A stretch of 64,000 nucleotides of DNA, taken from the NCBI GenBank assembly GCA_963782055.1, contig CAWAIF010000003.1:3456001-3520000 (forward strand), given 5' to 3'. A program made the position numbers and the translations under genes. Positions 11,319 to 40,929 of the stretch are shown one piece after another. This DNA is from an uncultured delta proteobacterium. Lineage in GTDB: Bacteria; Myxococcota_A; Polyangia; Polyangiales; Polyangiaceae. Each line of letters begins with the position of its first letter. The first letter of the stretch is position 1. Under the pieces are notes generated by a model, which made no database searches, was not told the origin of the DNA, and saw only the letters and a program-made list of their open reading frames with translations.

Positions 11319-12863
<1,545 letters not shown>

Positions 12864-13866: not shown

Positions 13867-15816
13867 TTGATCCCTCCCGAGACCATCGCCCTCATCCGCG
13901 AGCGGACCAACATCGTCGCGGTCATCCAGGAGAGCGTCCCGTCGCTGAAGAAGCGCGGGCGCTCGTGGGTGGGCCTGTGTCCGTTCCACAAGGAGAAGAC
14001 ACCGAGCTTCCACGTCAACCCGGACCGCGGCTTCTTCCACTGCTTCGGCTGCAAGGAGGGCGGCAGCGCCATCGACTTCCTGATGAAGCACGACGGCCTG
14101 ACCTTCCCGGAGGCGGTGCGCGATCTGGCCGAGCGCTGCGGCATCGAGGTGCGCGAGGAGGACCGCCCCGCGCCGGAGGCGGACCGGCAGCGCAAGCACA
14201 AGGACGATCTGTACGGCGTGCTGCAGGTGGCGGCGACGTTCTACGAGCAGATGCTGCGCGAGCACCCCGACCGCGCCTATGCGGTGGAAGAGCTGGAGAA
14301 GCGCGGCGTGGCGGGCGCCGACGCCGCCGACACCCTGCAGGCCTTCCGGATGGGCTACGCCCCCGGCGCGTGGGACGCCCTCGCGCAACACTTGAGGGGT
14401 CAAGGGATCTCCCCCGCGCTCGCCGAGCAGGTCGGGCTGCTGGTGCCGCGGCAGCAGGGCAGCGGTCACTACGACCGCTTCCGCCACCGCCTCATGTTCG
14501 CGGTGGTGGATCCGCAGGGCAGGGTGGTCGCCTTCAGCGGGCGCGCCCTGCGCGATCTGCCCGCGGAGCCAGGGGCGGCGCCGCGCGACCCGCCCCCCAA
14601 GTACATCAACTCCCCGGAGAGCCCGATCTACACCAAGGGCAACCTGCTCTTCGGGCTCTTCCAGGCGCGCCACGCCATCCGTCACGAGGACCTGGCGGTG
14701 CTGGTGGAGGGCAACTTCGACGTGGTGAGCCTCCACGCGCGCGGGATGACGAACGTCGTCGCCCCGCTCGGCACCGCCTTCACCGACGAGCAGGCGAAGC
14801 TGCTCCGCCGCTACGCCGGCAACGTGGTGCTCTGCTTCGACGGCGACGCGGCGGGCCGCAAGGCCACCGCCCTCGCCCGCGGGCCGCTCCGGGCGGCGGG
14901 TCTCGGTGCGCGCGTGGCCGCCCTGCCCGCCGGCTCCGATCCCGACGACCTCGCCCGCACCCGCGGCATCGACGCGGTCAAGGACGCCGTGGCGCAGGCC
15001 CGAGGCCTGCTCGAGTTCTTGCTGGAGGACCTGCTCGACGCCAACTTCAACAACGCCGACGCCTACGAGAAGTCGGCGCGCGTCCAGCACGTCGGCCGCG
15101 TGCTCGCCGAGGAAGACGATCCGCTCGTCCGGAGCACCCTCAAGCTGTACGTGGACCAGCTCGCCGGCCGCCTGGACCTGGTGACCCGCGATCAGGGGGG
15201 CAGGGGAGAGCGCTCGCCGGAGACCTTCCGGGCGCTGGAGGGGGCGGTGAAGCGCGCCCTCGCCCAGGCGCAGGCGCGGGACGCGCAGCGGGCGCAGCAA
15301 CCTTCGGGCCAGCGGCCCATGGCCCCGCAGCACGCCCGCGTTTCGTCGAGAAACCCGGGGGGAGCGGCGCGCGGGGCAATCGTCGGCGCGCTCATCGAGT
15401 ACCCCGAGCTGCTGACTGACCCTGGGGTGGAGGTCGCCTGCCAGCTGCTCGAGGGCGACTCGGCCCGTACCGTGGCCGCCCTGGCGGCCTGTACGAAAAG
15501 TTCGCCAGAGGGGGAAAAAACGCTAGACAGTGCTGAGTTTCTTGCGCAAATGCCTCCCGCGATCCATGCCTTTGCGGCCCAAAGGCTCGCGGCACCGCGC
15601 CTCGAGTCGGTGGACGAAGCGCGTGAGGTCGTCCTCTCCAATGCGGACAAGCTCAAGAGCATGATGGTGGAACGGCAGGCGAGCGAGCTGTCTCGCGAGC
15701 AGCGTCAAGCGGCGGACTGGGAGGCGGAGATCGAGCTCGCGCGTGAGGCCGAGCTGCAGGCGAAGGGCGCCCGAGGGCTCGGGCGGAACGACAAGGGTGG
15801 AGGAAGCGCCGGCTGA
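13867..15816 (+). CDS. dnaG: DNA primase
   Basis: CHC2 zinc finger CPFHKEKTPSF...CFGC; KYINSPES; TOPRIM VEGNFD, LGTA, FDGDAAG, DPDD. Confidence 0.98.
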   Translation: MIPPETIALIRERTNIVAVIQESVPSLKKRGRSWVGLCPFHKEKTPSFHVNPDRGFFHCFGCKEGGSAIDFLMKHDGLTFPEAVRDLAERCGIEVREEDRPAPEADRQRKHKDDLYGVLQVAATFYEQMLREHPDRAYAVEELEKRGVAGADAADTLQAFRMGYAPGAWDALAQHLRGQGISPALAEQVGLLVPRQQGSGHYDRFRHRLMFAVVDPQGRVVAFSGRALRDLPAEPGAAPRDPPPKYINSPESPIYTKGNLLFGLFQARHAIRHEDLAVLVEGNFDVVSLHARGMTNVVAPLGTAFTDEQAKLLRRYAGNVVLCFDGDAAGRKATALARGPLRAAGLGARVAALPAGSDPDDLARTRGIDAVKDAVAQARGLLEFLLEDLLDANFNNADAYEKSARVQHVGRVLAEEDDPLVRSTLKLYVDQLAGRLDLVTRDQGGRGERSPETFRALEGAVKRALAQAQARDAQRAQQPSGQRPMAPQHARVSSRNPGGAARGAIVGALIEYPELLTDPGVEVACQLLEGDSARTVAALAACTKSSPEGEKTLDSAEFLAQMPPAIHAFAAQRLAAPRLESVDEAREVVLSNADKLKSMMVERQASELSREQRQAADWEAEIELAREAELQAKGARGLGRNDKGGGSAG

Positions 15817-15909
15817 AGGCCGGCATGCGTCCGCGTGCGCGCGGGCGGAGACGTGGCAAGGTCCGTGTGGAACGGACGTGCGGGGCGACCCCAGGGAGCA
15901 TCGAGAAGC

Positions 15910-17730
<1,821 letters not shown>

Positions 17731-25759: not shown

Positions 25760-25904
25760 CGCGCGCAGCATAGAGCACCTGCCTCGCCACGAGCCAGGGG
25801 AAACGTAACTCAGGTCTGAGTGACGAATGTGCGGCGGCCCTCAGTTTCGCGCCCGACGCCCCGGCGGGAAGAGTGCGATCGCAGGCGGCGCGTACCCCCC
25901 GTGA

Positions 25905-26804: not shown

Positions 26805-27250
26805 GGCTGTCGGCCGGCCTTCGGCCGGGCCTCAGGTGACGTGCCCTTCGGGCTGTCGGCCGGCCTTCGGCCGGGCCTCAGGTGACGTGCCCTTCGGGCT
26901 GTCGGCCGGCCTTCGGCCGGGCCTCAGGTGACGTGCCCTTCGGGCTGTCGGCCGGCCTTCGGCCGGGCCTCAGGTGACGTGCCCTTCGGGCTGTCGGCCG
27001 GCCTTCGGCCGGGCCTCAGGTGACGTGCCCTTCGGGCTGTCGGCCGGCCTTCGGCCGGGCCTCAGGCGACGTGCCCTTCGGGCTGTCGGCCGGCCTTCGG
27101 CCGGGCCTCAGGTGACGTGCCCTTCGGGCTGTCGGCCGGCCTTCGGCCGGGCCTCTGGCGACGTGCCCTTCGGGCTGTCGGCCGGCCTTCGGCCGGGCCT
27201 CAGGTGACGTGCCCTTCGGGCTGTCGGCCGGCCTTCGGCCGGGCCTCAGG
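26805..27250. repeat. 46-bp tandem repeat array, ~9.7 copies, two hairpins per unit
   Basis: Unit gtgacgtgcccttcgggctgtcggccggccttcggccgggcctcag starts at 26836, 26882, 26928, 26974, 27020, 27066, 27112, 27158 and 27204, with a partial unit at 26805. Only the junctions near 27067 and 27156-27159 vary. No spacers. Confidence 0.97.
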
Positions 27251-28274
27251 CCTCGACGAGCGTGACCTCGTGGACGAGTGTGCCGAGGCCGTCAATTTCC
27301 AGCTCGACGACATCTCCCGGCTTCAGCCACTGGTTGTCGGTGATCTTGGAGCCGTTGAGCTCGAGGAAGCAGCCCGTGCCGCACGTGCCGGAGCCGATGA
27401 CGTCGCCCGGATAGAGCGTCACGCCATAGCTCGCGCGCTCCATGATCTGGGCGAAGGTCCACGTCATGTCCTGCGCGTTGCCCTTGGAGACCTGCACCCC
27501 GTTCACCCGCGCGGTCATCTCCAGCGAGAAGCGGTTGCCGCTCTGGGTGTGGATGGTCTTGGTGGCGAGCTCGTCCATCGTGACCAGGTGGGGGCCGAGG
27601 CCGGTCGCGAAGTCCTTGCCCTTGGTCGGGCCGAGCGACAGCTTCATCTCCTCCATCTGCATCGCGCGCGCGGAGAAGTCGTTCATCACCGTCATGCCGA
27701 AGATGGCGGCATCGGCCTGCTGCACGCTCAGGTTCCTCCCGCGCTTGCCGACGACGATCGCCACCTCCAGCTCGAAGTCCAGCCGCTCCAGGTGGCGCTT
27801 CTGGACCTGCAGCTTGCCCGGGCCGATGACCGCCTGGTGGTTGGTGAAGTAGAACACCGGGAACTGGTCGAACTCGGGGATCATCTCCACGCCGCGGTTG
27901 CGGCGCGCCGTCTCCACGTGCTGGCGGAAGGCGTAGCCGTCGCGCATCGACGGCGGCCGCGGCAGCGGGGCCTCCAGCGTGACGGTGGACAGCAGGTGCA
28001 CCAGCGACATGCCGTCGAAGGATGAGGGGAGCTTGCCTTCGGTCAGGGTGGCGAGGATGGCGTCGGCGGCCGGGCGGGCGACGTCGGCGTGCTCGATGAA
28101 GCCGAGCACCCCGCTCCCGTACCGGGCCTCCAGCGCCGCCGTGTGGCACGGACGGCCGTGCGTGTGCTCGAACCAGGCGAAGGCATGCGCCAGATCGACC
28201 ACCACCGGGCTGGGGCCTGTGACGACGACGCCCGCGCGCGGGTGGGCGTCGATGCGGAAGGTGACGAGCTTCAT
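27246..28274 (-). CDS. Fumarylacetoacetate hydrolase family protein
   Basis: RDGYAFRQHV, PVFYFTN, LDFELEVA, NDFSARAMQ, KGKDFATGLGP, PGDVIGSGT; start MKLVTF at 28274. Confidence 0.95.
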   Translation of the reverse strand: MKLVTFRIDAHPRAGVVVTGPSPVVVDLAHAFAWFEHTHGRPCHTAALEARYGSGVLGFIEHADVARPAADAILATLTEGKLPSSFDGMSLVHLLSTVTLEAPLPRPPSMRDGYAFRQHVETARRNRGVEMIPEFDQFPVFYFTNHQAVIGPGKLQVQKRHLERLDFELEVAIVVGKRGRNLSVQQADAAIFGMTVMNDFSARAMQMEEMKLSLGPTKGKDFATGLGPHLVTMDELATKTIHTQSGNRFSLEMTARVNGVQVSKGNAQDMTWTFAQIMERASYGVTLYPGDVIGSGTCGTGCFLELNGSKITDNQWLKPGDVVELEIDGLGTLVHEVTLVEA

Positions 28275-28369
28275 CCGGGGGGGATCCTTTCCGTGCGCCC
28301 GCGGGCTCCTGGGGGGGGCTGGGGGACGCGGGCTTGTATCGCAGGCCCCCATGGGACTAGCAAGGGCTG

Positions 28370-28849
28370 GTGTACTTACGGCTTCCGCGCGCGGCGCTGG
28401 GCGTTCTCTACGAGGTCTCGCGGCATCTGCTGCGCCGGCCGGTGGTGGGAATCGCCGCCGCAGCGCGGGTCGACGACGGCCGCTTCGTGCTGATCCGGCG
28501 GGCGGACACGGGCACGTGGTGCCTGCCCGGCGGCACCCTGGAGTGGGGCGAGACGCTGCGGTCATGCCTGCTCCGCGAGTTGCAGGAGGAGGCGGGGATC
28601 ACCTCCGGGGTGCGCGATGTGCGTGTCCTGGGCGTCTTCTCCGACCCCGGGCGCGATCCGCGCTTCCACGCGGTGACCGTGCTGGTGGCGTGCCGGGTGG
28701 ACCCGCCCTCCCGCGCGCCGGAAAATCCCCTGGAAATCCGCGAGGCGAGGCTCTTTGGCCCCGACGAGGCCCCGCGGCCGCTGGCGATGGGGATGGACGA
28801 CCTCTGGGAGCGGGCGCGCACCGGGCGGACCGACGTGGCCCTCGAGTAG
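28370..28849 (+). CDS. NUDIX hydrolase
   Basis: Nudix box PGGTLEWGETLRSCLLRELQEEAG; DPGRDPRFH. Confidence 0.9.
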   Translation: MYLRLPRAALGVLYEVSRHLLRRPVVGIAAAARVDDGRFVLIRRADTGTWCLPGGTLEWGETLRSCLLRELQEEAGITSGVRDVRVLGVFSDPGRDPRFHAVTVLVACRVDPPSRAPENPLEIREARLFGPDEAPRPLAMGMDDLWERARTGRTDVALE

Positions 28850-28881
28850 ATCCTCGGCCGCGCTGGCCCGTACCGAGCCCC

Positions 28882-30072
28882 ATGGAACGGATCGGGGAGT
28901 ACCTCATCAAGCGGATGGTCGGCGAGGGCGGGATGGGTCGCGTGTACGAGGCGGAGGAGCGTCTCTCCAAGCGCCGCGTCGCCCTGAAGGTCCTGCGGCA
29001 GGAGCTGCTGCGCGACGAGGACGGCCGGCGGCTGTTCCAGAGCGAGATGCAGATCCTGGCGCACCTGGAGCACCCCAACCTGGTGCGGAGCCTGGCCTCG
29101 GTGGAGGAGGACGGGCAGCTGGTGCTGGTGCTCGAGTACCTGGAAGGCAAGACGCTGCGCGAGGTGCTCAACGACCGCGGCGCGCTGCCCTGGCAGGAGG
29201 CGGTGGAGATCGTCGCGCAGATGGCGGCGGCGCTGGGCGTCGCGCACGCGCAGACGCCGCCCATCGTGCACCGCGACCTGAAGCCGGAGAACGTGATGGT
29301 GTGCGACGACGGCGTCGTGAAGGTGATGGACTTCGGCATCGCCAAGGTGCTGGAGCAGGCCCACGCGCCGAGCACGCAGAGCATCGGGACGCTGCAGTAC
29401 ATGAGCCCGGAGCAGATCGACGCGCGCCCCATCGACGCGCGGAGCGACCTGTACGCGCTGGGGCTGGTGCTCTACGAGCTGCTGGCGGGGGAGCCGCCGT
29501 TCCGCTCGGCGTCGCCGCGCGAGCTGCTCAACCTGCAGTGCACCGCCGAGCCCTCGGCGATGGAGGACGTGGAGGTGCCGGCGGGCGTCGAGGACCTGGT
29601 GTTCGACCTGCTCGCCAAGGACCCGGCGGAGCGGCCGGAGTCGGCGGAGACCGTGCTGGACGCGCTCGCCCCCCTGCGCGCGGGACGCAAGACCAAGAAG
29701 ACGCGCGGGGCGAGCTCCGGCAAGCCGGGCCGCGCGGAGAAGACGCTCCCCGCGGAGGAGGCCGACGACGCAGAGCCAGCGCCGCGCGCGGTGGCCGAGT
29801 CGCGCACGGGGGGCACCCTGGACTCGTCGCCGCCCCGCAAGAACGACACGGTGGCGCTGGTGGAGAAGGCGACCGCCCCGCGGCGGATCTCCATGCGCTG
29901 GGGCGTCGGGCTCATCGTCGCCGCCTCGCTCCTCTCCGGGCTGGCAACCTACGGCGTGCGCACCCACTACTGGGGCAAGAGCAAGACCGCGGCGAGCGTG
30001 AACGCCGACGACACGCCGGGCGGAGACGACGGCACGCCGCGCGGCGACCACGGCGCCTCGCGGGCGCGCTGA
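28882..30072 (+). CDS. Membrane-anchored Hanks-type Ser/Thr protein kinase
   Basis: GEGGMGRVY, VALK, HRDLKPEN, DFG, GTLQYMSPEQ, SDLYALG; C-terminal TM WGVGLIVAASLLSGLATYGV with a short tail. Confidence 0.95.
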   Translation: MERIGEYLIKRMVGEGGMGRVYEAEERLSKRRVALKVLRQELLRDEDGRRLFQSEMQILAHLEHPNLVRSLASVEEDGQLVLVLEYLEGKTLREVLNDRGALPWQEAVEIVAQMAAALGVAHAQTPPIVHRDLKPENVMVCDDGVVKVMDFGIAKVLEQAHAPSTQSIGTLQYMSPEQIDARPIDARSDLYALGLVLYELLAGEPPFRSASPRELLNLQCTAEPSAMEDVEVPAGVEDLVFDLLAKDPAERPESAETVLDALAPLRAGRKTKKTRGASSGKPGRAEKTLPAEEADDAEPAPRAVAESRTGGTLDSSPPRKNDTVALVEKATAPRRISMRWGVGLIVAASLLSGLATYGVRTHYWGKSKTAASVNADDTPGGDDGTPRGDHGASRAR

Positions 30073-30085
30073 TTGGGGCACGGCG

Positions 30086-33007
30086 ATGAGCGCGCAGGTC
30101 GCCACCGTCCTGGGGCGCGTGGGCCGCGCCGAGAGGGTGCTGCTGCAGGATGGCCGCGAGGCCTGGGTGCTCGACGCCGCCGACGCCTCGCTCGCGCGCC
30201 GGCTGGCGCGTCTGGGGCGGCGCCGCCTGGGAGGCTTCACCGCCGCGCGCGGGCTGCTCCCTTCGCGGGGCGACGCGCCGGTGCTCGTGCGCGCGCAGGG
30301 TCGGACCGTCGACGCGCTGGTCCGGGGGGAGCGCTTGCCCTGGCGCGAGGTGCTGGCGTGTGTCCGCGATCTGGCCAGCGCCCTCGCCGAGTGCGAGCGG
30401 CGCGGCTGGTTCCCCGGCCCGCTGGGCCCGGGCCAGCTCGGGCTGGAGCCGGAGGCGCACGTGCGGGCTGATGCGCTGGTGGGCGCGTGGCTGGGGGAGG
30501 GGACGAAGGACAGGCCGCACTCCCTCCCGTCGCCGCGCTGGACGCCGCCGGAGCAGAGCGAGGGGGCGCCCTGGGACGGCGCCGCCAACCGCTACGTGCT
30601 CGGCCTGCTGGCCTACCGGCTGATCGCCGGCGCGATGCCCTTCGCCGGGGAGAGCCTGCGCGACGACCTCGGTGAACGCAGCGAGGCAGGGGCGCCGCCC
30701 TTCGACGAGGCGATCGCCCGGGAGCTGGAGCCGGGTGTGCAGAGCCTGGTGCTCTCCATGCTCGCGCCTCGCGCGCAGGACCGACCGGCGAACGCCGCGG
30801 CGATCGTCGCGGCCTGCGCGGCGCTGCTCTCCCCGCCACGCGCCGGCGTGGCCAGTGCAACCGTCGCCGGGGCCGCCCCGGCCGCGCCCGCCGCCCAGCG
30901 GGAGGTGGCGTCGGATCGCAAGCGTGCTGGCAATCCGCCGGGGCCCGCGGCCGCGCGGCTGGGTCTCCCGCAGCTCGGCCGCCGTGGGGTCTGGTCGGTC
31001 GCGGCGGGGCTGCTCATCGCCGCCGGCGCCCTCGCCGCCCCCGGCCCGCGGACGACGCCGCGCCGCACGCCCAGGGCAGCCCCCCTGCGCGACACCGGGG
31101 TCTCGGCGTGCGCGTCGTGCCACCCGAGCGAGGTGGCGCAGTGGAAGCGCTCGGTGATGGCGCACGCATCGAAGAGCCCGCTGTTCGGCGCGCTGGAGAG
31201 CGCGGTGGAGGAGCAGGTCGGGCGCAGCTTCACCTGCCCCAACGGCGCGGGCGTCCTGCGGCGGCCCGCGACGGACGCGTGCCGCGACGAGCGCACCGGG
31301 CTGGTGGTGACCGGCACCGGCGGCGAGGGCTGGTGCATCAACTGCCACGCCCCGGGGGAGAACCTGCGCGCGAGCGCGCCGGCGTGGAGCGCGGTGCGCC
31401 AGGACGGCTCGCGCGAGCCGCTGGTCGACCTGCTGGCGCGGCCCTCGCTGGAGGGCATCTCGTGCGCGGTCTGCCACCAGACGGTGGGGCCGGTGGGCGA
31501 GCACGGCCGGCACACCGGCGCCTACGAGGGCAACCCCACCTGGACGAGTCCCTTGACGGGTCAAGTGTTTGCCTCCCGGCCGGAGGACCTCGCGGGCACG
31601 CCGGGGATCGCCAACAGCGGCTACGATCTGGAGGCGGGCCTGCTGCTCGACCGCGCGCGCCCCGGCGACCCGACGCCGCACGGCCACGCCGACGCGGCGG
31701 CGGAGAGCTACCTGCGCTCGAGCGAGTTCTGCGGCGCGTGCCACGACGTGCGCCTCTTCGGCACCGACGCGGTGGGGGTGGTGCAGCGCGGCGAGCACTT
31801 CAAGCGGCTGCGCAACGCGTATTCGGAGTGGCGGACGTGGGCGGACGGGGAGCGGCGCGCGGGGCGAAAGCCGGCGACGTGCCAGGGGTGTCACATGAGC
31901 CGCTACCCCGGCGTGTGCGTGCCCGCCCCCGGCGCGGCCGGCGACGCCGACTGCCCCTCCGGGACGCGCTTCGAGGCGCGCGCGCCAGGCGCGGGCGGCA
32001 CCACGCACTACTTCACCAGCGTCGACGTGCCCCTCACCACGTCGTACCCGGACGTCTTCGCCGACGACGCGGCCCTGGACGGCGCCGGCACGCCGGTGGG
32101 GCTGCGCGCGCGGCGCGACATGATGCTGCGCCACACCTTCCGCTTCTCCATCGACGGCGCGAGGCGCGCGGGCGGCACGCTGCAGATCCCCGTGGTCGTA
32201 CAGAACGTGGGCGCCGGCCACCGCGTGCCGGCCGGCTTCAGCCAGGAGCGAGAGATCTGGGTGGAGATGCGCGTGAGCGACGCGCGCGGGCAGACGGTCT
32301 ACGAGGTGGGGCACCTGGCTTCGCCGAGCGCGGACCTGGGGGACAAGCGCTTCCTGCGGGTGACCACCCGCGACGGGCTGGAGGACGGCCTGGGGCGGCC
32401 GCAGGGCGTGTTCGGCGCCGACGTCGCCGACGGCTCGGACGTCCCGCGATGGTCGCCGCCGCCGTCGCTCGGCGGCACCTTCTTCCGCGGCTCCGGGCTC
32501 ATCAACTTCCAGAACGGCTTCTTGCGGTGCGTGCGCTGCATCGGCGTGATCGACGACGCCGGGGAGTGTCAGCCGGGACCGGGGCAGGGCTTCACGCGCG
32601 CCGACCGCTTCGACGACGGCGGCTACGACATCGACACCGGCGAGTGCCGCTCCAACCTCTCCGGCGGGCACGAGCTCTTCGAGACGTACTTCCCGGTGGG
32701 ATCACTGGACGCCGAGCGCGGCGTGGCGAAGGCGCCCGACGCCATCATCGACACGCGCTCCGCGCCCCCGGGCGTGCCCATCACCTACACCTACGAGCTG
32801 CCCGCCGGTGGGCACCCCGCGCCCTTCCACGTGCGCGCCACGCTCCACTTCCGGTCCTTCCCGCCGTACCTGGTGCGGGCGTTCGCGGACTACGAGGCGC
32901 GGCAGGCGGCGCGGGGACTGCGGCCGAGCGGCCCGCAGGTGACAGAGGACATGCTGCGCCGGCTGGACGTGCTCGACCTGGCGACGGCCGAGGCGGAGCT
33001 GAAATGA
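30086..33007 (+). CDS. Degenerate kinase-like domain - TM - five-heme cytochrome c fusion
   Basis: The N-terminus keeps kinase C-lobe traces (WTPPEQ...WDGAANRYVLGLLAYRLIAGAMPF...MLAPRAQDRP) but no HRD or DFG. TM VWSVAAGLLIAAGALA. CxxCH motifs CASCH, CINCH, CAVCH, CGACH, CQGCH, then a GHRVPAG-containing beta-rich C-terminal domain. Confidence 0.85.
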   Translation: MSAQVATVLGRVGRAERVLLQDGREAWVLDAADASLARRLARLGRRRLGGFTAARGLLPSRGDAPVLVRAQGRTVDALVRGERLPWREVLACVRDLASALAECERRGWFPGPLGPGQLGLEPEAHVRADALVGAWLGEGTKDRPHSLPSPRWTPPEQSEGAPWDGAANRYVLGLLAYRLIAGAMPFAGESLRDDLGERSEAGAPPFDEAIARELEPGVQSLVLSMLAPRAQDRPANAAAIVAACAALLSPPRAGVASATVAGAAPAAPAAQREVASDRKRAGNPPGPAAARLGLPQLGRRGVWSVAAGLLIAAGALAAPGPRTTPRRTPRAAPLRDTGVSACASCHPSEVAQWKRSVMAHASKSPLFGALESAVEEQVGRSFTCPNGAGVLRRPATDACRDERTGLVVTGTGGEGWCINCHAPGENLRASAPAWSAVRQDGSREPLVDLLARPSLEGISCAVCHQTVGPVGEHGRHTGAYEGNPTWTSPLTGQVFASRPEDLAGTPGIANSGYDLEAGLLLDRARPGDPTPHGHADAAAESYLRSSEFCGACHDVRLFGTDAVGVVQRGEHFKRLRNAYSEWRTWADGERRAGRKPATCQGCHMSRYPGVCVPAPGAAGDADCPSGTRFEARAPGAGGTTHYFTSVDVPLTTSYPDVFADDAALDGAGTPVGLRARRDMMLRHTFRFSIDGARRAGGTLQIPVVVQNVGAGHRVPAGFSQEREIWVEMRVSDARGQTVYEVGHLASPSADLGDKRFLRVTTRDGLEDGLGRPQGVFGADVADGSDVPRWSPPPSLGGTFFRGSGLINFQNGFLRCVRCIGVIDDAGECQPGPGQGFTRADRFDDGGYDIDTGECRSNLSGGHELFETYFPVGSLDAERGVAKAPDAIIDTRSAPPGVPITYTYELPAGGHPAPFHVRATLHFRSFPPYLVRAFADYEARQAARGLRPSGPQVTEDMLRRLDVLDLATAEAELK
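30909..30940. repeat. Palindrome family copy inside a coding linker
   Basis: cgtcggatcgcaagcg|tgctggcaatccgccg; the right arm is the exact reverse complement (16/16) of 54415-54430. Confidence 0.7.
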
Positions 33008-35178
33008 GCGGGTGGGGCGCGCACGTCTTCGAACACCCGCTGCTGCGCGGCCTGGACGCCCGCGCGCGGGGGGAGATCGAGCTGGCGGGCGCGGTGCGCG
33101 AGCTCGCCGCGGGGGCGAGGCTCTTCGGCGCGGGCGACCCGGCCGACGCCCTCTTCGTGGTCGACCGCGGCACCTTCTCGCTGCGCGCGCGGCGCCGGGG
33201 CGAGGAGGTGCCGGAGGAGATCCGGCGGGCGGGGGCGGGCGACGCGCTGGGCGAGGACGCCGTCGCGCGGTCCTTCGGCGCGCGGAGGGCGGAGGCCACC
33301 TGTCTCGAGGCCGGCGCGGTGTGGGTCATCCCGGCGCCCATCCTGCGGCGCGCGCTGGAGCGTCTCGGCCGCGACGAGGCCGCGCTGCGGCGCGAGCGCA
33401 TCGCGCGGAGGGCGGCGCTGGGCGACGTGCTGCGCACCGTGGCGTTCGCGCGGGACCTGCCGGCGGCGGACCTGGAGGCGCTGCTCGACGTCGCCGAGTC
33501 GCGGGAGCTGCGGCGGGGAGAGGTGCTCTGGCGCGAGGGAGAGCGCGCGAACGCCGTCGCCTTCGTCGCCGACGGCTCGGTGCAGCTCCAGCGGGAGGAG
33601 GGCGAGCGGGTGCGGGTGGTGGCGTACCTCGGCGCGGGGGACATGCTGGGGGACGAGGACGCGCTCGCCGGGACGGCGCGCTCGCTGGCGGCGGTGGCCG
33701 CGGGCGAGGCGTGGGTCGTCCAGGTGCCGGCGCGGGCCTTCGCACCCGTCGCCGCGCGGCACCCGGAGGTGGCGGAGCGCGCGCGGCGCGTGCGCAAGGA
33801 CGCGATGGACGTGCAGCGGCAGCTCTCCGCCCGCGCGACGCGGCACGTGCTGGGCGATCTCCACCGCTTCGAGACCGCGCGCTCGCTGCTGGTGATCGAT
33901 CAGGAGGCCTGCGTGCGCTGCGGGCACTGCTCCGCCGCGTGCGGCGCGGCGCACGGGGACGGCATCTCCCGCCTGCTGCGGCAGGGCGACACGGTGCGTA
34001 CCCACGTGTCCGGCGCGCCGGTGACCCTGCTCCTGCCGAGCAGCTGCCAGCATTGCCAGCACCCGGCGTGCATGATCGATTGCCCGACGGGGGCGATCGG
34101 GCGCGACGAGCAGGGCGACGTCTTCATCCGCGAGGACCTCTGCACCGGGTGCGGGAGCTGCGCGAAGGCGTGCCCGTGGGAGAACATCGCGATGGCGCCC
34201 CTCGGGGTCGAGGGCGCGCAGGTGGCGGTCAAGTGCGACCTCTGCGCAGGGATGGAGGGCGGGCCGGCGTGCGTCGCGTCGTGCCCGACGCAGGCCATCG
34301 CGCGCATCGAGCCGCAGCGCACGCTGGACGACGTGCGCGCCGCGCTGGGCGACGAGCGCGCGCCGGTGCCGCTGCCCGCGCGCGCCGCGGCGTGGCCTCA
34401 CGTGGCCGCGGCGGCGGTGGCGGCGCTAAGCGTCGGGTGGGCGGGCCGCGCCTGGCCGAAGACGCTGACGGGTCTGCTCGCGCTGGCGTGCGTCGTCGCG
34501 CTCGTCGCCTACGCCGTGCTCAAGCGGCGCGGTGGCCGCGCGGCCGCCCCGGCGCCTCGCGCGTCGCGGGTACGCGCCCACTTCATCGCGCACCTCGCGC
34601 TCGGCGCGCTCTGCCTCGGGTTCGTCGCCGCGCACGCGGGGATGCGCTATCGGGCCGACCTGGCCGGTGCGCTGGCGATCGCCTTCTGGACGACCGGCTC
34701 GCTGGGCGTCCTGGCGGCCGCCGCGTACGCCCTGGCTCCCCGCGTGCTGGCCCGGCTGGAGCGCTTCGTGCGGATGCCGGAGGATCTCGCGGACCACGCC
34801 CGCGACCTGGACGCGCGCGTGTTCCGCGGCCTCACCGGCCGGAGCGACGCGGTGAAGGTGATCTACGCCCGGGTGCTGGTGCCGTACCGCAAGGGGCCGG
34901 CGAGCGCGTTGCGCCTGCTCTGCGGCGCGCGGCTGGGTGACGAGGAGCGCAGGCTGCGCGCGCGCATCGACGGGATGCTGGGCGCGGACAGGACGGGAGG
35001 CGAACGGCTCGCCGGGCTGGAAGAGCTGATCCGCCTGGTCGTGGAGCAGCGGGCCCTGCCGCTGGTGCGCTGGCTGAACCGCGCGCTGCGCGGTCTCTCC
35101 GGCGCGCACGCCGCGCTCACGGTGGCGACGGTGATCCTGCTCGCCGCGCACGTCCTCGTCGCCCTGAGGTACCGGTGA
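33004..35178 (+). CDS. 2x cNMP-binding + four-cluster [4Fe-4S] ferredoxin + membrane domain (putative di-heme b)
   Basis: ATG at 33004 overlaps the upstream TGA. Two CAP-like domains (LFGAGDPADALFVVDRG...GDALGE; LWREGERANAVAFVADG...GDMLGDE). Cys motifs CVRCGHCSAAC, CQHCQHPACMIDCP, CTGCGSCAKACP, KCDLC..PACVASCP. TM helices with two H-X13-H pairs. Confidence 0.88.
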   Translation: MSGWGAHVFEHPLLRGLDARARGEIELAGAVRELAAGARLFGAGDPADALFVVDRGTFSLRARRRGEEVPEEIRRAGAGDALGEDAVARSFGARRAEATCLEAGAVWVIPAPILRRALERLGRDEAALRRERIARRAALGDVLRTVAFARDLPAADLEALLDVAESRELRRGEVLWREGERANAVAFVADGSVQLQREEGERVRVVAYLGAGDMLGDEDALAGTARSLAAVAAGEAWVVQVPARAFAPVAARHPEVAERARRVRKDAMDVQRQLSARATRHVLGDLHRFETARSLLVIDQEACVRCGHCSAACGAAHGDGISRLLRQGDTVRTHVSGAPVTLLLPSSCQHCQHPACMIDCPTGAIGRDEQGDVFIREDLCTGCGSCAKACPWENIAMAPLGVEGAQVAVKCDLCAGMEGGPACVASCPTQAIARIEPQRTLDDVRAALGDERAPVPLPARAAAWPHVAAAAVAALSVGWAGRAWPKTLTGLLALACVVALVAYAVLKRRGGRAAAPAPRASRVRAHFIAHLALGALCLGFVAAHAGMRYRADLAGALAIAFWTTGSLGVLAAAAYALAPRVLARLERFVRMPEDLADHARDLDARVFRGLTGRSDAVKVIYARVLVPYRKGPASALRLLCGARLGDEERRLRARIDGMLGADRTGGERLAGLEELIRLVVEQRALPLVRWLNRALRGLSGAHAALTVATVILLAAHVLVALRYR

Positions 35179-37265
35179 GCGCGCCGCGCCGGAGGTCCGC
35201 GCGGCAGGCGGTGCGCACGAGCGACGCCACCCGCGCGCGCGACGTGCTGGTGGCGGGGGTGGCGGGCGCGGCCGGGCTCACCGCCGCGGCGCTCGGCCTT
35301 CGAGGGCCGACCGGCGCGGCCTCCCCCGGAGCGCTCAGCGGACCGCACGCCACGGCGAAGCTGGCGTGCGCGGCGTGCCATCACGACGGCCAGTCCGCGG
35401 CGGCGAGCTGCGCCGGGTGCCACGGCAAGGAGGCGCACGCCTCCACCCGCGCCGCGCACCGGGCGCTCGCCGCGAGCGGGCAGCTCCGGTGCACGACGTG
35501 CCACCCCGCGCATGGCGACGCGCAGACGGTCGCGCTGCACGAGGACGGCACCTTCGTGCGGACCGGTGGCGGGGCGGCGGCGACGGGTCAGCTCTCCGGA
35601 GGGGCGCCTCGGGCGACCGTGCCGCTGGTGACCGTGGAGGCGTGCCGCGGCTGCCACAATCCCTCCTCGCCGACCGACCCCGCGGCCCGCTGCATCGCCG
35701 CCGGCGACCCGCACGACGCGCACGCCCTTTTGCTGTGCATGGACGAGCACCAGCGCGCCGACGCCGAGACCGCCAGGCGCCCCACCGCGTCCGGTCACGC
35801 GAGCGTGTGCGCGCGCCAGCACGGACCGGCGCGCTTCGCCGCGTGGGACGCGGCGAAGGAGGCGGCCGCGAAGTCCGGATGGGTGGAGGCGCCACGCGCG
35901 CGCACCGGTCCGGTCGCGTGGACGGGCGCCGGCGTGCTCGGCTCGGTGGGGGCGCTGGCCGGCCTGCGCCTCTTCGGGCGGCGTGGTCGCGGCGCGCCAG
36001 GCGGACCGCTCCCCGGATCGGGAGGTGGCGCGCGCAAGCTGCCCGTCATCGACACCTCCACGTGCCTGGGGTGCTACGCGTGCGTCGACGCGTGTCCCTT
36101 CGACGTGCTGGAGGTGCGGCGCTTCGTCGCCGTCGTCGCGCGTCCGGACGACTGCTGCGGGGTCGTGCTCTGCGAGCAGGCGTGCCCGAACGGTTCGCTC
36201 GGGATCGGCGACGCGCAGCAGGAAGACGAGGCCGTGGAGCCCTGGGTGAGCGCGTCGCAGGAGTCGGCGGAGGTGCCCGGCCTCTACGTGGCGGGCGATC
36301 TCACCGGCCTGCCGCTCATCAAGAACGCCATCGCCCAGGGCTCGCGGGCGATCGACGCCATCGGCGCTTCGCTCAAGGGCAAGCGCAAGCACGGCTGCGA
36401 TCTGGACGTCGTCGTGGTGGGGGCCGGGCCCGCGGGGCTGGCCGCGTCGCTCCGCGCGAAGGAGCTCGGCCTGAAGTACCTGACGCTGGAGCAGCACACC
36501 TTCGCCGCGAGCATCCAGAGCTTCCCGCGCAACAAGCTGGTCTACGACGCCCCGCTGCAGGTCCCGGTGGAGGGGGAGCTCTGGCTGGAGCAGAGCACCA
36601 AGGAGCAGCTCCTCGCCGCCTGGACGCGCGTGGTGCGCAAGCACGCGCTGCGACTGCGGGAGCACCAGCGCGTGGTGGGCATCGAGCGCGATCCGGGGGA
36701 GGCCGGCGGCTTCCGCATCACCGCCAAAGGAGAAGGGGAGAGCGCGACGCGGTCATGGACCGCCGCGCGGGTGCTGGTGGCGATCGGCAAGCGAGGGACC
36801 CCCCGCCGCCTGGAGGCACCCATCGACGCCGACGCGGAGGCCAAGGTGAGCTACTCCCTCGCCGACGCCCGGTCCTTCGCCGGAGCGCGGGTGGTGGTGG
36901 TGGGGCTCGGCGACGCCGCCATGGAGGCGGCCGTGGCGCTCTCGCGCCAGCCGGGCACCGAGGTGACGGTCGTCCACCGCGGTGCCGGCTTCCAGCGCGG
37001 CAAGGCGCGCAACATCGAGGAGCTGCAGGGCCTCGTCGGGCGCGGCAAGGTGCGCCTGCTCTTCGACGCGCAGGTGGTGAGGGTGCGTCGCGCCTCGGTC
37101 GGCATCCGCCAGGCCGGGAAGGAGCGGGAAGCGCCAAACGACGTCATCCTCGCCCTCATCGGCGGGGTACCTAGCTGGGAGCTGCTGCGCGGGGCAGGGG
37201 TCATGGGGGGGCCACACGGGGAGCGGGGTCGAACCGGGCAGATCCTTTCGGATGCCGGGCCGTAA
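35175..37265 (+). CDS. TM - four-heme cytochrome c - TM - 2x[4Fe-4S] - FAD/NADPH oxidoreductase (thioredoxin-reductase-like fold) fusion
   Basis: CAACH, CAGCH, CTTCH, CRGCH; CLGCYACVDACP and CCGVVLCEQACP; PGLYVAGD, VVVVGAGPAG, AIGKRGTPR, VVGLGDAA, VHR. Confidence 0.88.
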   Translation: MSAPRRRSARQAVRTSDATRARDVLVAGVAGAAGLTAAALGLRGPTGAASPGALSGPHATAKLACAACHHDGQSAAASCAGCHGKEAHASTRAAHRALAASGQLRCTTCHPAHGDAQTVALHEDGTFVRTGGGAAATGQLSGGAPRATVPLVTVEACRGCHNPSSPTDPAARCIAAGDPHDAHALLLCMDEHQRADAETARRPTASGHASVCARQHGPARFAAWDAAKEAAAKSGWVEAPRARTGPVAWTGAGVLGSVGALAGLRLFGRRGRGAPGGPLPGSGGGARKLPVIDTSTCLGCYACVDACPFDVLEVRRFVAVVARPDDCCGVVLCEQACPNGSLGIGDAQQEDEAVEPWVSASQESAEVPGLYVAGDLTGLPLIKNAIAQGSRAIDAIGASLKGKRKHGCDLDVVVVGAGPAGLAASLRAKELGLKYLTLEQHTFAASIQSFPRNKLVYDAPLQVPVEGELWLEQSTKEQLLAAWTRVVRKHALRLREHQRVVGIERDPGEAGGFRITAKGEGESATRSWTAARVLVAIGKRGTPRRLEAPIDADAEAKVSYSLADARSFAGARVVVVGLGDAAMEAAVALSRQPGTEVTVVHRGAGFQRGKARNIEELQGLVGRGKVRLLFDAQVVRVRRASVGIRQAGKEREAPNDVILALIGGVPSWELLRGAGVMGGPHGERGRTGQILSDAGP

Positions 37266-37273
37266 CAAGGCCC

Positions 37274-38788
37274 ATGAAGCTCCGGAACGCCCTCTTTCTC
37301 GCCGCCCTGGGCATGGCTGGTTCCAGCGCGGGCGCCCTCGCGCTGCCCGTCCCCCACGACGCCTGGAAGCCCGCGGTCACCACGCAGGCACCCGTCGCGG
37401 TGAGCGACATGTCGCACTTCGTCGCCGGGCAGACCCTCACGGTGGACGCCCGCCTGGGACACGCGTCGCTCGCGCGGGGCGGCGACGGAGAGACGTACCT
37501 GTTCGCGTCGGTGAGCGGCGTGGACGCCCCGAGCGCGGCGCCTCCGCTCCACCTGGCGGTGGTGATCGACCGCTCCGGGTCCATGAAGGGGGAGCGCATC
37601 GCCCGCGCCATCGACGCGGCCAGCGCCATCGTGGAGCGGATGCGCGAGGGCGACTCCATCACGGTGGTGAGCTTCGACACGACCTCGCGCGTGGTGGTGC
37701 CCCCGACCACGGTCGGCGCCGGATCGCGCGCGAGCATCGAGGCGGCGATCCGGTCCATCCGGCTGGGCGGCGACACCTGCATCTCGTGTGGCCTCAGGAC
37801 CGCCATGACCGAGCTGGACACGCTCCCGCTCTCCGGCGACCACGTCACGCGGATGATCCTGCTCTCCGACGGCGCGACCAACCACGGCATCACCGACATG
37901 GGCGGCCTGCGCGCCATGGCGGGTCACATGCGCGACCAGGGCGTGTCCATCACCACCATGGGCGTGGACGTGGACTTCGACGAGAAGGTGATGGCCGCGC
38001 TGGCGATCGAGTCCAACGGCCGCCACTACTTCGTCGAGAACGCGGCGTCGCTGCCCGCCATCTTCTCGCAGGAGTTCGACTCCCTGCTCGCCAGCGTGGC
38101 GAGCGACGGCGAGATGACGGTGGAGCTGCCCGAGGGCGTGGAGGTGGAGCAGGTCTTCGATCGCTCCTTCCGCCGCGAGGTCTCCGGCGGCAAGACGCGG
38201 GTCATCGTGCCCTTCGGCACCTTCAGCGCGAAGCAGCAGAAGACGGTGCTGATGAAGCTCCGCGTGCCGGTGGACCGCGACGGCACGCAGCCGGTCGCCG
38301 CCGTCTCGCTGGCGTACCGCGACCTGCTCTCGCGCCGCGACGGCTCCTGCGCCGGGGATCTCGCCCTGGCGGTCAAGAGCGACGGCACCGCGCAGCGGGA
38401 GCTGGATCCCTTCGTGGCGACGCGCCTGGAGCGCAGCCGCACCGGGGAGTCGCTCACCGCCGCCAACGATCTCTTCGAGCAAGGGAAGGTGGCGCAGGCG
38501 CAGGAGGTGCTCGCCACCCGCGAGACCGAGCTGCGGCGCCGCAGCGCGCGCATCGGCCACCACGCGTCCCCCATGGCGAGCGATCGGCTGAACGCCGACT
38601 TCGACAAGCAGCTCGCCTTCGTGGACGAGGCGGAGAAGAACTTCGCGCCGGCCGCCGCGGCGCCCATGGGCGGCGGCGGTGTCGGTGGGACGACGACCAC
38701 GGCCACGCCGGCCCCGGTGCAGGACACCCGCGCGGGACGCGCGCAGGTCCGGGCCAACCAGCAGAACGCCGCCGACATGGGCTTCTGA
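37274..38788 (+). CDS. Exported VWA (von Willebrand factor A) domain protein
   Basis: Signal peptide; MIDAS VVIDRSGSM; GGDT; ILLSDG; TTMGVDVDFDE...LA...GRHYFVE. Confidence 0.92.
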   Translation: MKLRNALFLAALGMAGSSAGALALPVPHDAWKPAVTTQAPVAVSDMSHFVAGQTLTVDARLGHASLARGGDGETYLFASVSGVDAPSAAPPLHLAVVIDRSGSMKGERIARAIDAASAIVERMREGDSITVVSFDTTSRVVVPPTTVGAGSRASIEAAIRSIRLGGDTCISCGLRTAMTELDTLPLSGDHVTRMILLSDGATNHGITDMGGLRAMAGHMRDQGVSITTMGVDVDFDEKVMAALAIESNGRHYFVENAASLPAIFSQEFDSLLASVASDGEMTVELPEGVEVEQVFDRSFRREVSGGKTRVIVPFGTFSAKQQKTVLMKLRVPVDRDGTQPVAAVSLAYRDLLSRRDGSCAGDLALAVKSDGTAQRELDPFVATRLERSRTGESLTAANDLFEQGKVAQAQEVLATRETELRRRSARIGHHASPMASDRLNADFDKQLAFVDEAEKNFAPAAAAPMGGGGVGGTTTTATPAPVQDTRAGRAQVRANQQNAADMGF

Positions 38789-38792
38789 GAGG

Positions 38793-39043
38793 ATGTGAAC
38801 TTCGTTCACATCCCTCTCAGTGATGTCCTGGCAGGGGCGGCACGCGCCGCCCCTCCCCGCCCAAGTAAATTGGGCGGGGCCCCTCCCCACGCGGGCCCTC
38901 CGCTACGCGTCGGGCGAGCATGTGAACTTCGTTCACATCCCTCTCAGTGATGTCCTGGCAGGGGCGGCACGCGCCGCCCCTGGGCGGGGAGGAAGATTGG
39001 GCGGGGCCCCTCCCCACGCGGGCCCTCCGCTACGCGTCGGGCG
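38793..39043. repeat. Tandem duplication of a 124-bp hairpin-rich element (period 127)
   Basis: Copies at 38793-38916 and 38920-39043 are identical except for a ~14-nt patch. They contain hairpins atgtgaac-ttc-gttcacat and ggggcggc-acgc-gccgcccc. Confidence 0.93.
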
Positions 39044-39123
39044 TCCCCACCTCGGGACTTCCTCACACACTCTGAGGAACGCCCGCTGTACGTCCGGCGT
39101 CGGGCGCGCATACTCTGAGGTGC

Positions 39124-40929
39124 GTGGCCACGCCGCTGCCCCTCGCCGCCCACTCGGAGGACGCCGCCCCGGCGCGGCCCGGCGCGAGGGGGCGCGCGCC
39201 CCGCGTGCTGGAGCGCGCGCCGGCCGACGCGCCCATGTCGGGCTTCCGGCGCGGCCGCCGCAGCCCGCGCGCCATCGCGTGGTTCGGCTTCAGCGCCTTC
39301 TGGGGGCACCTGCGCCACCTCCTCGCGTCTGCCATCGCGACCGAGAACATCGACTCGCGACAGTGGATGATGCCGGAGACACCGGAGGAGCTCCTGGCGC
39401 GCGCCACCACCCTCCTCGCCGAGCGCGGGGCGAAGCCCGCGCCGACCCTCGCCGCGTCGCTCGGCGGGGAGGTGTGGATCGACTTCGTCGCCGACACCGG
39501 CGACGACCTGGAGGTGAGCGAGCGCACGGGGGAGCTGATCGCCGGCGAGTACGAGGTGGACGACCCCGACGGTGGCGGCCGGCTGCTGCTGCCGCGCGGG
39601 CACGTGCTCTTCCACGGCGGCGACCTCGCGTACCCGGTCGCGACGGTGCGCGAGATCACGCGCCGGCTGCTCGACCCCTGGAACCGCGTCTTCGAGCGCG
39701 AGGGCGACGGCGTGCCGCGGCTGTTGCTGGGCGTGCCGGGCAACCACGACTGGTACGACGGCCTGGATGGCTTCGCGCGCCTCTGCCAGGCGCCGTGCGA
39801 GTTCGAGCGCCGGCTGGATCGCGAGTCGCGCCCCAACGAGCACCCGGTGCTCGCGTGGGCGGAGGCGTTCGTCGGCGGTGAGGCGGTGCGCAAGCCGGAC
39901 GCGCTCGCGCTCTTCGGTTACTACCCGGTGCAGCGCACCAGCTACTTCCGTCTGCCGCTCGCGCGCGGGCTGGAGCTGTGGGGCGTGGACCGGCAGCTGA
40001 AGCAGATCGACCCGCGGCAGGGGCAGTTCTTCCACCAGCAAGAGGGGCCGGTGCTGGTGGTGCTGCCCGACCCGGCGCGCTCGTGGGGCGAGGACAGGCC
40101 CAACGGCAAGGCCTCGCTGGAGGCGCTCGGACTCGATCCGGCGCGCCGTCGGGCCTACGTGCTCTGCGGCGACATCCACCACTACGAGCGCTCGGCGGAG
40201 GGGGAGGGCAGCCTGCACGTCGTGGCAGGGGGCGGGGGGGCCTTCATGCAGGGCTCGCGCATGGCCGGCGGCGCGACCTACCGCATCGACGCGGAGTTCC
40301 CCGGACCGCGAGCGTCGTGGTCCCTGCTCGAGGGATTGCCGCTGCACGTCGCGCGCGGCGGCGCGGGGTGGCTCATCACGGCGGCCTTCGCGCTGATGCT
40401 CGCCGTCGAGCTGGGCGCGCGGCTGGTGTACGGGCGCGGAGCGGCGCTGCCCTTCGCGGTCTTTCACAGCGCGGTGGTCGCCGTCGGCACGGCGGCGCTC
40501 GTCGGCTGGCGGCGGCACCGCATGTGGCGCGTGTGGCCCTTCGCCATCGCCTTCGGGCTCTTCATCGGCATCCTGCCGCTGGCGATGGGCATCTTCGTCG
40601 ACCATGTCGGCATGCGTGCACTCGGCCGCACGCTGCTCGCGCGTGGATGCGCGATCGGCGCGGGCTGGCTGGCGGCCACGCTCGCCACCGGCGCGGCCTT
40701 CGGGGCGATGCTCGCGCTCATCGCGCGCCTGGGGCTCAATCACGCGCAGCCCTTCGCCGCGCTGGGGCTACCGACGCACAAGCACTTCGTCCGGCTGCGG
40801 GTGCGGGAGGGGGAAGAGGGGACCGTCGTCGACTCTTTCGTGGTGGGGCAGGTGGATCCGCTCGGGGGGAGCCCGCCGGTCCTGGTGGACCACTTCCGGT
40901 GGGTCCCAGACGCCCCCCGCCGGCGGTAG
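39124..40929 (+). CDS. Calcineurin-like metallophosphoesterase with C-terminal TM helices
   Basis: DFVADTGD, GGDLAYP, PGNHDWYDG, GDIHHY; several hydrophobic helices; start uncertain (39124 GTG or 39235 ATG). Confidence 0.8.
   Translation: MATPLPLAAHSEDAAPARPGARGRAPRVLERAPADAPMSGFRRGRRSPRAIAWFGFSAFWGHLRHLLASAIATENIDSRQWMMPETPEELLARATTLLAERGAKPAPTLAASLGGEVWIDFVADTGDDLEVSERTGELIAGEYEVDDPDGGGRLLLPRGHVLFHGGDLAYPVATVREITRRLLDPWNRVFEREGDGVPRLLLGVPGNHDWYDGLDGFARLCQAPCEFERRLDRESRPNEHPVLAWAEAFVGGEAVRKPDALALFGYYPVQRTSYFRLPLARGLELWGVDRQLKQIDPRQGQFFHQQEGPVLVVLPDPARSWGEDRPNGKASLEALGLDPARRRAYVLCGDIHHYERSAEGEGSLHVVAGGGGAFMQGSRMAGGATYRIDAEFPGPRASWSLLEGLPLHVARGGAGWLITAAFALMLAVELGARLVYGRGAALPFAVFHSAVVAVGTAALVGWRRHRMWRVWPFAIAFGLFIGILPLAMGIFVDHVGMRALGRTLLARGCAIGAGWLAATLATGAAFGAMLALIARLGLNHAQPFAALGLPTHKHFVRLRVREGEEGTVVDSFVVGQVDPLGGSPPVLVDHFRWVPDAPRRR

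Follow-up and report, generated by a model that had tools for sequence, protein, structure and literature searches.

What would a bacterium do with a row of genes that sets a protein kinase, cyclic nucleotide-binding (cNMP) domains, iron-sulfur (Fe-S) clusters, a flavoprotein and multiheme cytochromes c side by side? The question is raised by a locus in a 64,000-nucleotide stretch of DNA (hereafter the window; positions 3,456,001 to 3,520,000 of contig CAWAIF010000003.1, assembly GCA_963782055.1) from an uncultured member of the Polyangiaceae, in which six co-oriented genes, here called g1 to g6, lie between positions 28,370 and 38,788 (Table 1). Five of them, encoding a kinase (g2), a pentaheme protein (g3), a cNMP-FeS-membrane protein (g4), a tetraheme-flavoprotein (g5) and a von Willebrand factor type A (VWA) protein (g6), form a conserved unit. 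Judging from the encoded sequences, this unit may serve the regulated export of electrons from NADPH for redox switching or signalling in the cell envelope and not for respiration, a proposal to which we give an even chance. Confidence varies among its parts: g4 and g5 probably have the architecture of an electron conduit and outward electron flow is reasonably probable, while envelope redox switching as the specific output is a tentative choice, with the balance tilted against it.

To define the unit, 94 loci encoding the g3 heme domain were collected; removal of identical, short and edge-cut rows left a tree of 72 loci, and gene order was counted in those tree loci that had sufficient flank. 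The kinase gene is found upstream of g3 in 45 of 47 loci, and downstream g4 and g5 are each present in 42 of 43 and the VWA gene in 36 of 43. The NUDIX gene g1, by contrast, occurs in 16 of 47 loci, namely in 16 of the 17 that make up one clade (clade A) and in none of the 30 outside it, and an opposite-strand gene of the fumarylacetoacetate hydrolase (FAH) family tracks it (12/17 and 0/30, respectively). Because it is confined to one clade, we regard the NUDIX gene as lineage-specific local synteny, so that the six-gene operon proposed in a first-pass annotation of the window contracts to five genes. The descriptive basis of that annotation (six co-oriented open reading frames (ORFs), their spacing, motif counts and domain calls) was confirmed by an ORF check and Pfam, with the motifs conserved among homologues, and the co-occurrence of kinase, conduit and VWA genes that it anticipated in other genomes is borne out by the neighbourhood counts. 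As the loci were selected by g3 and are related, these counts show conservation, not independence. When loci were taken from g4 instead, all nine close ones had g2 and g3 upstream, and five distant ones had no g3 match nearby.

The conduit is most clearly outlined by g5 and by the fusions in which its modules take part. The protein runs from a membrane helix through exported CxxCH motifs at residues 65, 79, 106 and 157 and a second membrane helix (~248-268) to a cytoplasmic ferredoxin domain (290-340) and a flavin domain. All four CxxCH motifs are kept in 56 of 61 orthologues, and the heme part has its matches at the beginning of decaheme-type cytochromes and of multihemes of a type found in Sphingobium. 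The flavin domain has the thioredoxin reductase (TrxR)/YpdA fold, with PDB entries 7A76 (E 7e-21) and 7A7B (E 1e-18) as its best sequence matches, and is circularly permuted, with the C-terminal segment of its unpermuted relatives placed ahead of the first Gly motif in 50 of 51 scorable orthologues. It has neither a redox dithiol nor a conserved Cys, and should therefore act as an NADPH:ferredoxin reductase rather than as a disulfide reductase. In all 57 loci holding both parts, the flavin domain is fused to the multiheme, whereas in Sphingobium (locus L026) and two other Myxococcota (L024, L027) the flavin, cNMP and Fe-S modules make up a single chain, and the genes that follow encode a stand-alone membrane protein and a multiheme bearing a forkhead-associated (FHA) domain. 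Between them the two layouts tie all four modules together, which is good evidence for a single complex. FHA domains, which bind phosphothreonine, are a frequent addition to these modules in relatives that have no kinase (L022, L027) and provide an independent tie to phosphorylation.

In g4, the four-cluster ferredoxin part (residues ~295-435) gives sub-cut-off matches to NrfC, DmsB and HydN, as expected of a DmsB/NrfC-type four-cluster subunit, and all 16 of its Fe-S cysteines are invariant in 48 aligned homologues. The membrane domain comprises five helices (model predicted local distance difference test score, pLDDT, 85), on two parallel ones of which His530/His544 and His702/His716, the members of each pair 14 residues apart, are present in 120 of 120 homologues. 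Two His pairs spaced by 13-14 residues on parallel helices are the two-b-heme pattern of NOX enzymes and ferric reductases, and the domain is predicted to hold an inner (His530/His702) and an outer (His544/His716) heme b. In the collected loci it has matches among membrane proteins that stand alone in Sphingobium and other Myxococcota (E 6e-10 to 2e-16), and three of five relatives give sub-cut-off matches to cytochrome b561. An Atlas cluster named ferric reductase-like scored 0.92, and when the whole g4 model was used for fold searches, only cNMP domains came back. In the first of the two cNMP domains (A), Gly83-Glu84 is present in 120 of 120 and Arg94 in 119 of 120 homologues, and it is plausible that a nucleotide gates g4; the host genome encodes six class III cyclase domains as well as three cytochrome c assembly genes, none of them in the cluster.

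The electron path from NADPH through FAD, Fe-S clusters and heme b to heme c that the first-pass annotation had proposed thus gains support, at the level of sequence, from the invariant His pairs and from the fusions in other genomes, and it was right that the cluster holds no molybdopterin or oxidase subunit. Some of its details need revision. While the four hemes of g5 stand, the assignment of two [4Fe-4S] clusters to the same protein is uncertain, since the second motif is non-canonical (CC-x4-C-x3-CP in 58 of 58 orthologues); of the HR pair read as a sign of NADPH use only the Arg is conserved, the orthologue consensus being YR; and both cNMP folds of g4 are real but only the first has a canonical pocket. 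The annotation also missed the membrane helix of g2, the two helices flanking the g5 hemes, the permutation of the flavin domain and a CxxC motif in the VWA protein.

On the outer side of the membrane the path would continue into g3, the exported domain of which carries CxxCH motifs at residues 342, 417, 460, 549 and 599 (all five present in 105 of 105 long homologues) and ends in an immunoglobulin (Ig)-like β-sandwich. The model of the exported part has a mean pLDDT of 56, below 50 in the heme part. A Foldseek search with it nevertheless returned the penta-heme cytochrome c552 structure 5ZE8 (E 1.8e-8) as the sole match below E 0.001, and in a wider structural search the same entry came top (Z 13.5, root-mean-square deviation 3.5, 194 residues aligned; next match Z 9.4). 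PDB sequence searches with the heme part gave no significant match, so that 5ZE8 was found by fold search only. Within the cluster, conservation peaks in the heme domain (62-71% identity, against 44-51% for g4), for which reason g3 may still be an enzyme. A non-heme CxxC (815-818) is present in 120 of 120 close homologues and in 5 of 57 distant pentahemes. The host genome encodes a second, stand-alone pentaheme of the g3 family (543 residues; G000:C3:3589327-3590958, minus strand); at least 18 of its ORFs have three CxxCH motifs or more, and two of these have 13.

One pentaheme enzyme invites direct comparison, namely MccSep, the polysulfide reductase of Geobacter. According to the accessible part of its description, it has five hemes and an Ig-like stem and needs Sec325 and Cys239; the substitutions U325A and U325C abolish activity, and heme 2 is His/Cys-ligated (bioRxiv 10.1101/2025.11.18.688581). 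The AGHxxPxG loop that precedes Sec in the peptide printed there, from which we took the Sec325 position, is recognisable in g3, and the loop after this motif is invariant. The Sec325 position itself is occupied by Phe in all 88 loci with the motif and in 118 of 118 such homologues (six further loci have no motif match), hence g3 is not an MccSep. The residue past heme motif 5 is Met in 119 of 120 homologues, and we infer that it is the equivalent of Cys239. MccSep structures were not among the matches of our PDB sequence and fold searches with g3.

The remaining parts of the unit concern control. In g2, the Gly loop, Lys36, HRDLKPEN and DFG are invariant in 63 aligned rows and the activation segment is present. 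A C-terminal membrane helix (residues 336-354) is kept in 81 of 81 homologues, 79 of which have a tail of fewer than 70 residues beyond it, and g2 has no extracellular sensor domain; a juxtamembrane D-T motif occurs in 77 of the 81. The cytoplasmic part of g3 (residues ~10-250, ahead of a membrane helix at 301-319) is a pseudokinase that retains the C-lobe: HRD and DFG are found at the N-terminus of none of 105 homologues and in 1 of the 76 pseudokinase segments in the collected loci. It aligns to the g2 profile with an hhalign E of 1e-29 and clusters with g2 orthologues when set against 60 kinases of the host genome (FastTree support 0.88, 104 columns), a grouping that suggests duplication; g2 also stands at the top of the 96 other matches to the pseudokinase in the genome (87 versus 80 bits). 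The pseudokinase is present in 76 of the 94 loci and missing from 13, the other 5 being cut by the contig end, while two loci retain it without g2 within 10 kb upstream. Some loci seemed to encode an active kinase fused to the pentaheme; the eight inspected have separate ORFs and no pseudokinase, and the candidate was rejected.

Structure prediction hints that g2 may bind this pseudokinase: the pair scored 0.47 while the best of three controls scored 0.00, with contacts agreeing to at least 72% and a partner pLDDT of at least 87. Among solved pairs 116 of 157 pass the threshold used, compared with 2 of 215 among mismatched pairs, and passing scores of 0.60 or lower comprise only 18 solved pairs and both mismatches. 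A Thr/Ser-rich motif ahead of the first membrane helix in the N-terminal tail of g5 (region 35220-35240; 41 of 61 orthologues by our own pattern) is a candidate g2 phosphorylation site.

The VWA protein g6, finally, has intact residues of the metal ion-dependent adhesion site (MIDAS) and a CxxC (169-172) immediately after the MIDAS Thr. This TCxxC arrangement is seen in 48 of 48 orthologue matches (46 whole, 2 cut), and in none of six paralogues in the host genome or the one in the loci. A dithiol at this site could switch metal-dependent binding.

Taken together, these features lead us to propose that an electron conduit of the inner membrane is made up of g4 and g5. NADPH would be oxidised by the flavin domain of g5, which lacks a dithiol, and single electrons would pass through the ferredoxin of the same protein to the four clusters of g4. 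From there they would cross the membrane over the b-hemes of g4, reach the g5 tetraheme and finally arrive at the pentaheme that g3 anchors in the membrane. This path would stop in the periplasm, as neither a porin, nor a decaheme, nor a terminal catalytic subunit is encoded, and would serve a regulated switching of the redox state of envelope proteins and not energy conservation; the best candidate for a target would be the CxxC beside the metal site of g6, possibly reached through the CxxC of g3. Two controls would act from the cytoplasm: a nucleotide-type ligand bound to cNMP domain A, and phosphorylation by g2 in partnership with the presumed dead duplicate that g3 carries.

Several observations weigh against this reading. 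The membrane domain of g4 has no Pfam ferric-reductase match (E 0.05). In its second cNMP domain the pocket is degenerate, with Gly-Asp and with Arg in 100 and His in 20 of 120 homologues, and in domain A the residue after Arg94 is unusual (Gln in 77 of 120), so that the ligand may be neither cyclic AMP nor cyclic GMP. The 13 deletions of the pseudokinase represent at least two independent losses, no g2 was detected upstream in two of 47 loci, and the VWA gene is absent near 7 of 43, with inserted genes setting it apart elsewhere. Because kinase pairs are similar to complexes that have been solved, the weak pass of the g2-pseudokinase pair may reflect memorised structures. The CxxC of g6 could also be a structural disulfide; the same may hold for that of g3, which, together with two further invariant Cys, may otherwise be a metal site.

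Other explanations assign the same parts different roles. In the alternative that we take most seriously, unlikely though we consider it, the system is a redox receptor with a reset: an oxidant or gas from outside would oxidise or bind the g3 pentaheme, the signal would pass through the membrane helix and the pseudokinase to g2 with phosphorylation, not electrons, as the output, and the wire formed by g4 and g5 would only re-reduce the sensor. A g2 that has a membrane helix and no ectodomain, beside a g3 that joins an ectodomain to a dead kinase grouping with g2, is what such a receptor would look like, and both the faint complex prediction and the Phe at the catalytic Sec/Cys position point the same way; however, in the 13 loci with almost no cytoplasmic g3 part the signal would have to travel from helix to helix, and the wider family has the same wire without any kinase. 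More speculative, and rather improbable, is a redox receptor-kinase machine in which the pentaheme ectodomain on the pseudokinase governs the sensorless kinase, in a split reminiscent of HER3/HER2, while the nucleotide-gated NADPH wire sets its oxidation state and flips the VWA dithiol switch. If true, a social bacterium would use electron transfer as the medium by which signals connect its surface with cyclic nucleotides and with phosphorylation. It is improbable to a further degree that the pentaheme is a terminal enzyme which, like MccSep, acts in the periplasm on a small substrate, a sulfur, nitrogen or metal species, reducing it for detoxification or as an electron sink: the shared architecture, the invariant loop that follows AGHxxPxG and a heme domain conserved as an active site would be speak for it, but the Phe in place of a residue that neither Ala nor Cys can replace in MccSep, and the Met past heme motif 5, speak against it.

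Electrons might also run inward, with low-potential periplasmic hemes gathering them and the flavin domain reducing NADP+. Dithiol-less flavoenzymes of the TrxR fold can be reversible ferredoxin-NADP+ reductases, and 5ZE8 is termed a low-potential cytochrome in the title of its paper; yet the cluster encodes no donor-oxidising subunit, and b- and c-hemes usually have higher potentials than NADPH, which favours outward flow and makes this direction very improbable. We give still less credence to an oxidant generator resembling NOX, in which the NADPH-fed di-heme domain would make superoxide outside the cell under nucleotide gating, much as NOX5 is gated by calcium. The His spacing, the helix layout and the ferric reductase-like Atlas cluster agree with it, but all variants examined encode exported multihemes beside the membrane domain, which would take the electrons, and a dehydrogenase domain of the FNR type is missing. 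Hardly credible, lastly, is the extracellular electron transfer through a porin-cytochrome complex that has been suggested for the ptd genes of other bacteria (bioRxiv 10.1101/2023.11.21.568154, in the part available): the core is common to both systems, but here no porin or decaheme was found among the six genes or, judged by first residues and lengths, among the recurring neighbour families, and the pentaheme is tethered to the inner membrane.

Table 1. Genes of the cluster and the adjoining divergent gene, in window coordinates
Gene	Product	Position	Strand	Basis or remark
g1	NUDIX hydrolase, 159 aa	28370..28849	+	PF00293 E 3.5e-21; outside conserved unit
g2	intact Hanks-type Ser/Thr kinase, 396 aa	28882..30072	+	PF00069 E 5e-57
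g3	pseudokinase-TM-pentaheme c-Ig-like protein, 973 aa; PHC / PtdA-type	30086..33007	+	motifs, model, hhalign
g4	2x cNMP + four-cluster ferredoxin + membrane domain, 724 aa	33004..35178	+	Pfam 2x cNMP_binding + Fer4
g5	tetraheme c + ferredoxin + permuted flavin domain, 696 aa	35175..37265	+	Pfam Fer4 + Pyr_redox_3
g6	exported or membrane-anchored VWA protein, 504 aa	37274..38788	+	PF00092 E 5e-19
	FAH (fumarylacetoacetate-hydrolase) family gene	27246-28268	-	diverges from NUDIX gene, ~100 bp apart

The six genes are separated by 32, 13, -4, -4 and 8 bp and have a GC content at third codon positions of 0.91-0.98. The starts of g2 and g4 fall within longer open frames and are backed by orthologue alignments. 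No sigma-70 promoter or intrinsic terminator was found in 27800-39300, which is the chance expectation for DNA this GC-rich. In RNA runs of one study (metagenomic contigs), the Sorangium locus is evenly covered in all 30 bins, inserted genes included, a pattern indistinguishable from that of DNA. The nearest named relatives of g4 come from Sorangium, Labilithrix and Polyangiaceae, and the host is a GC-rich myxobacterium with a single copy of the cluster. Full-length g3 was found in 8 of 23 genomes of the family, against none of 127 other sampled genomes of the order. Since g4 is present in 66 of 150 other sampled genomes of the family (about 44%) and the cultured Sorangium cellulosum So ce56 carries the cluster, the system offers a bench model.

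The surroundings vary. Downstream of the VWA gene, a gene at 39124-40929 (plus strand) encodes a 601-residue protein with calcineurin-like metallophosphoesterase motifs (recognised by eye) and C-terminal membrane helices, possibly a nucleotide phosphodiesterase; it has no Pfam match at E 0.01, occupies this place in five of the 17 loci of clade A but in none of 26 others, and is not part of the core. Housekeeping genes, identified by eye as those for alpha-glucan phosphorylase and leucyl-tRNA synthetase, flank the region at 23153-25771 (minus strand) and 42345-45032 (plus strand). The Sorangium locus L002 is broken by genes for secreted proteins (8634-9455 and 12589-17396), one between g3 and g4 and others, for a Cys-rich VWA-like protein and a DUF4215/PPC protein, between g4 and g5. 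RimK-like and protease-like genes (by eye) sit between g5 and the VWA gene in L018-L019 and L036, and in four loci a FecR-VIT-VWA-TPR gene follows the VWA gene. Locus L021 (G090:C25:9000-23616) shares the cNMP-FeS-membrane fusion and the permuted flavoprotein with the host but has another layout: its multiheme genes are divergent and encode at least 8, 15 and 16 CxxCH motifs, and neither a pentaheme nor a kinase match lies close by.

How does the cluster relate to known systems? Literature searches yielded nothing on the host system, and in the available parts of PMC7159879 and bioRxiv 2025.01.14.632903 the cluster is not described. The first-pass annotation had recorded no characterised equivalent, and this holds, but the cluster is not without precedent: the same module set is found in ptdABCDEFG, a name that our searches returned only from the 2024 preprint cited above, according to the available part of which these genes occur in marine Alphaproteobacteria and other phyla and their function is 'completely unknown' (bioRxiv 10.1101/2023.11.21.568154). 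There PtdA is a pentaheme with a C-terminal β-sandwich, for which Thermochromatium (T.) tepidum c552 is the named homologue; PtdB is a porin; PtdC is an FAD/NAD(P) oxidoreductase resembling flavohemoprotein; PtdD is a periplasmic tetraheme; PtdE combines cNMP and 4Fe-4S domains; PtdF is a ferric-reductase-like membrane protein; and PtdG is a decaheme.

By its five CxxCH motifs, Ig-like domain and top match 5ZE8, g3 is of the PtdA type, a link that runs through 5ZE8 and not through a PtdA sequence. The cNMP-FeS part of g4 corresponds to PtdE, with a profile match of E 4e-53 to the ptd-like locus L025, and its membrane domain to PtdF, through its stand-alone counterparts; the two are thus fused in g4. 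The FAD/NAD(P) domain of g5 is a permuted Pyr_redox_3 domain of the TrxR fold and was compared with PtdC by description, L025 having an FNR+2Fe-2S protein at this place, and its four hemes, matching the start of decaheme-type proteins, were likewise compared with PtdD by description only. A porin (PtdB) is encoded neither by the six genes nor, as far as first residues and lengths can tell, in neighbour families recurring in at least 4 of 91 loci; with the same scope no decaheme (PtdG) was found, no cluster protein having more than five CxxCH. With three Ptd parts matched and porin and decaheme absent, we regard the cluster as a ptd variant and not a member. A search for a true PtdA beside ptdC-G found none, plasmids yielding Sphingobium-type loci only, and in three of five distant Myxococcota the pentaheme matches lie on other contigs.

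The Sphingobium-type module of plasmids and other Myxococcota shares with the host cluster the flavin family of the TrxR fold, the cNMP-FeS and membrane domains and a multiheme start that matches the g5 tetraheme. It differs in its fusion points, its unpermuted flavin domain, its FHA domains in place of kinases and the lack of an adjacent pentaheme (five Myxococcota genomes). In L026 (17614-24927) and L027 (7889-16537) it adjoins genes for an HbpS-like heme protein, a probable barrel protein and a large multiheme with LVIVD repeats, a neighbour set common to an alphaproteobacterium and a myxococcotan.

Among individual proteins, g3 shares five c-hemes and the Ig-like C-terminal domain with the PHC pentahemes, comprising c552 (5ZE8), MccSep/ExtKL and, in the available part of PMC11976967, those of cable bacteria. 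Unlike these it is anchored in the membrane and joined to a cytoplasmic pseudokinase, has larger inserts that bring additional Cys and Phe at the Sec position, and would be fed by a dedicated wire encoded next to it. The closest flavin fold to that of g5, including the Arg-type NADPH motif, is YpdA/Bdr, the bacillithiol disulfide reductase. A Cys beside the FAD is important in Bdr; g5 has Ala for this Cys after the first Gly motif, reaches 131.9 bits against a TIGR04018 cut-off of 339.9, and is permuted and fused to a ferredoxin and a membrane tetraheme.

Cytoplasmic reducing power is carried over the membrane by MsrPQ, DsbD/CcdA and NOX/ferric reductases, of which MsrQ and NOX use bis-His b-hemes; to our knowledge, none has an Fe-S wire, cNMP domains, c-type multihemes or kinases. 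The His-pair spacing of NOX and ferric reductases is found in g4, but Pfam detects no FNR-type dehydrogenase domain in g4 or g5, and the four-cluster subunit of complex iron-sulfur molybdoenzymes has its match in g4, without a molybdopterin catalytic subunit in the cluster. Nor did the literature searches reveal a multiheme cytochrome as a kinase ectodomain, which is what g3 would be if the kinase link is true.

Relative to ptd, which belongs to marine proteobacteria, the version of these Polyangiaceae-type myxobacteria thus adds a sensorless kinase, its probable dead duplicate bearing a pentaheme ectodomain, and a VWA protein with a CxxC, and it has a permuted flavoenzyme and dispenses with porin and decaheme. 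The ptd-type wire is widespread and without known function, and the myxobacterial version gives clues that the marine one lacks: the porin appears dispensable, phosphorylation recurs, through kinases here and FHA domains elsewhere, and the CxxC of the VWA protein offers a candidate target.

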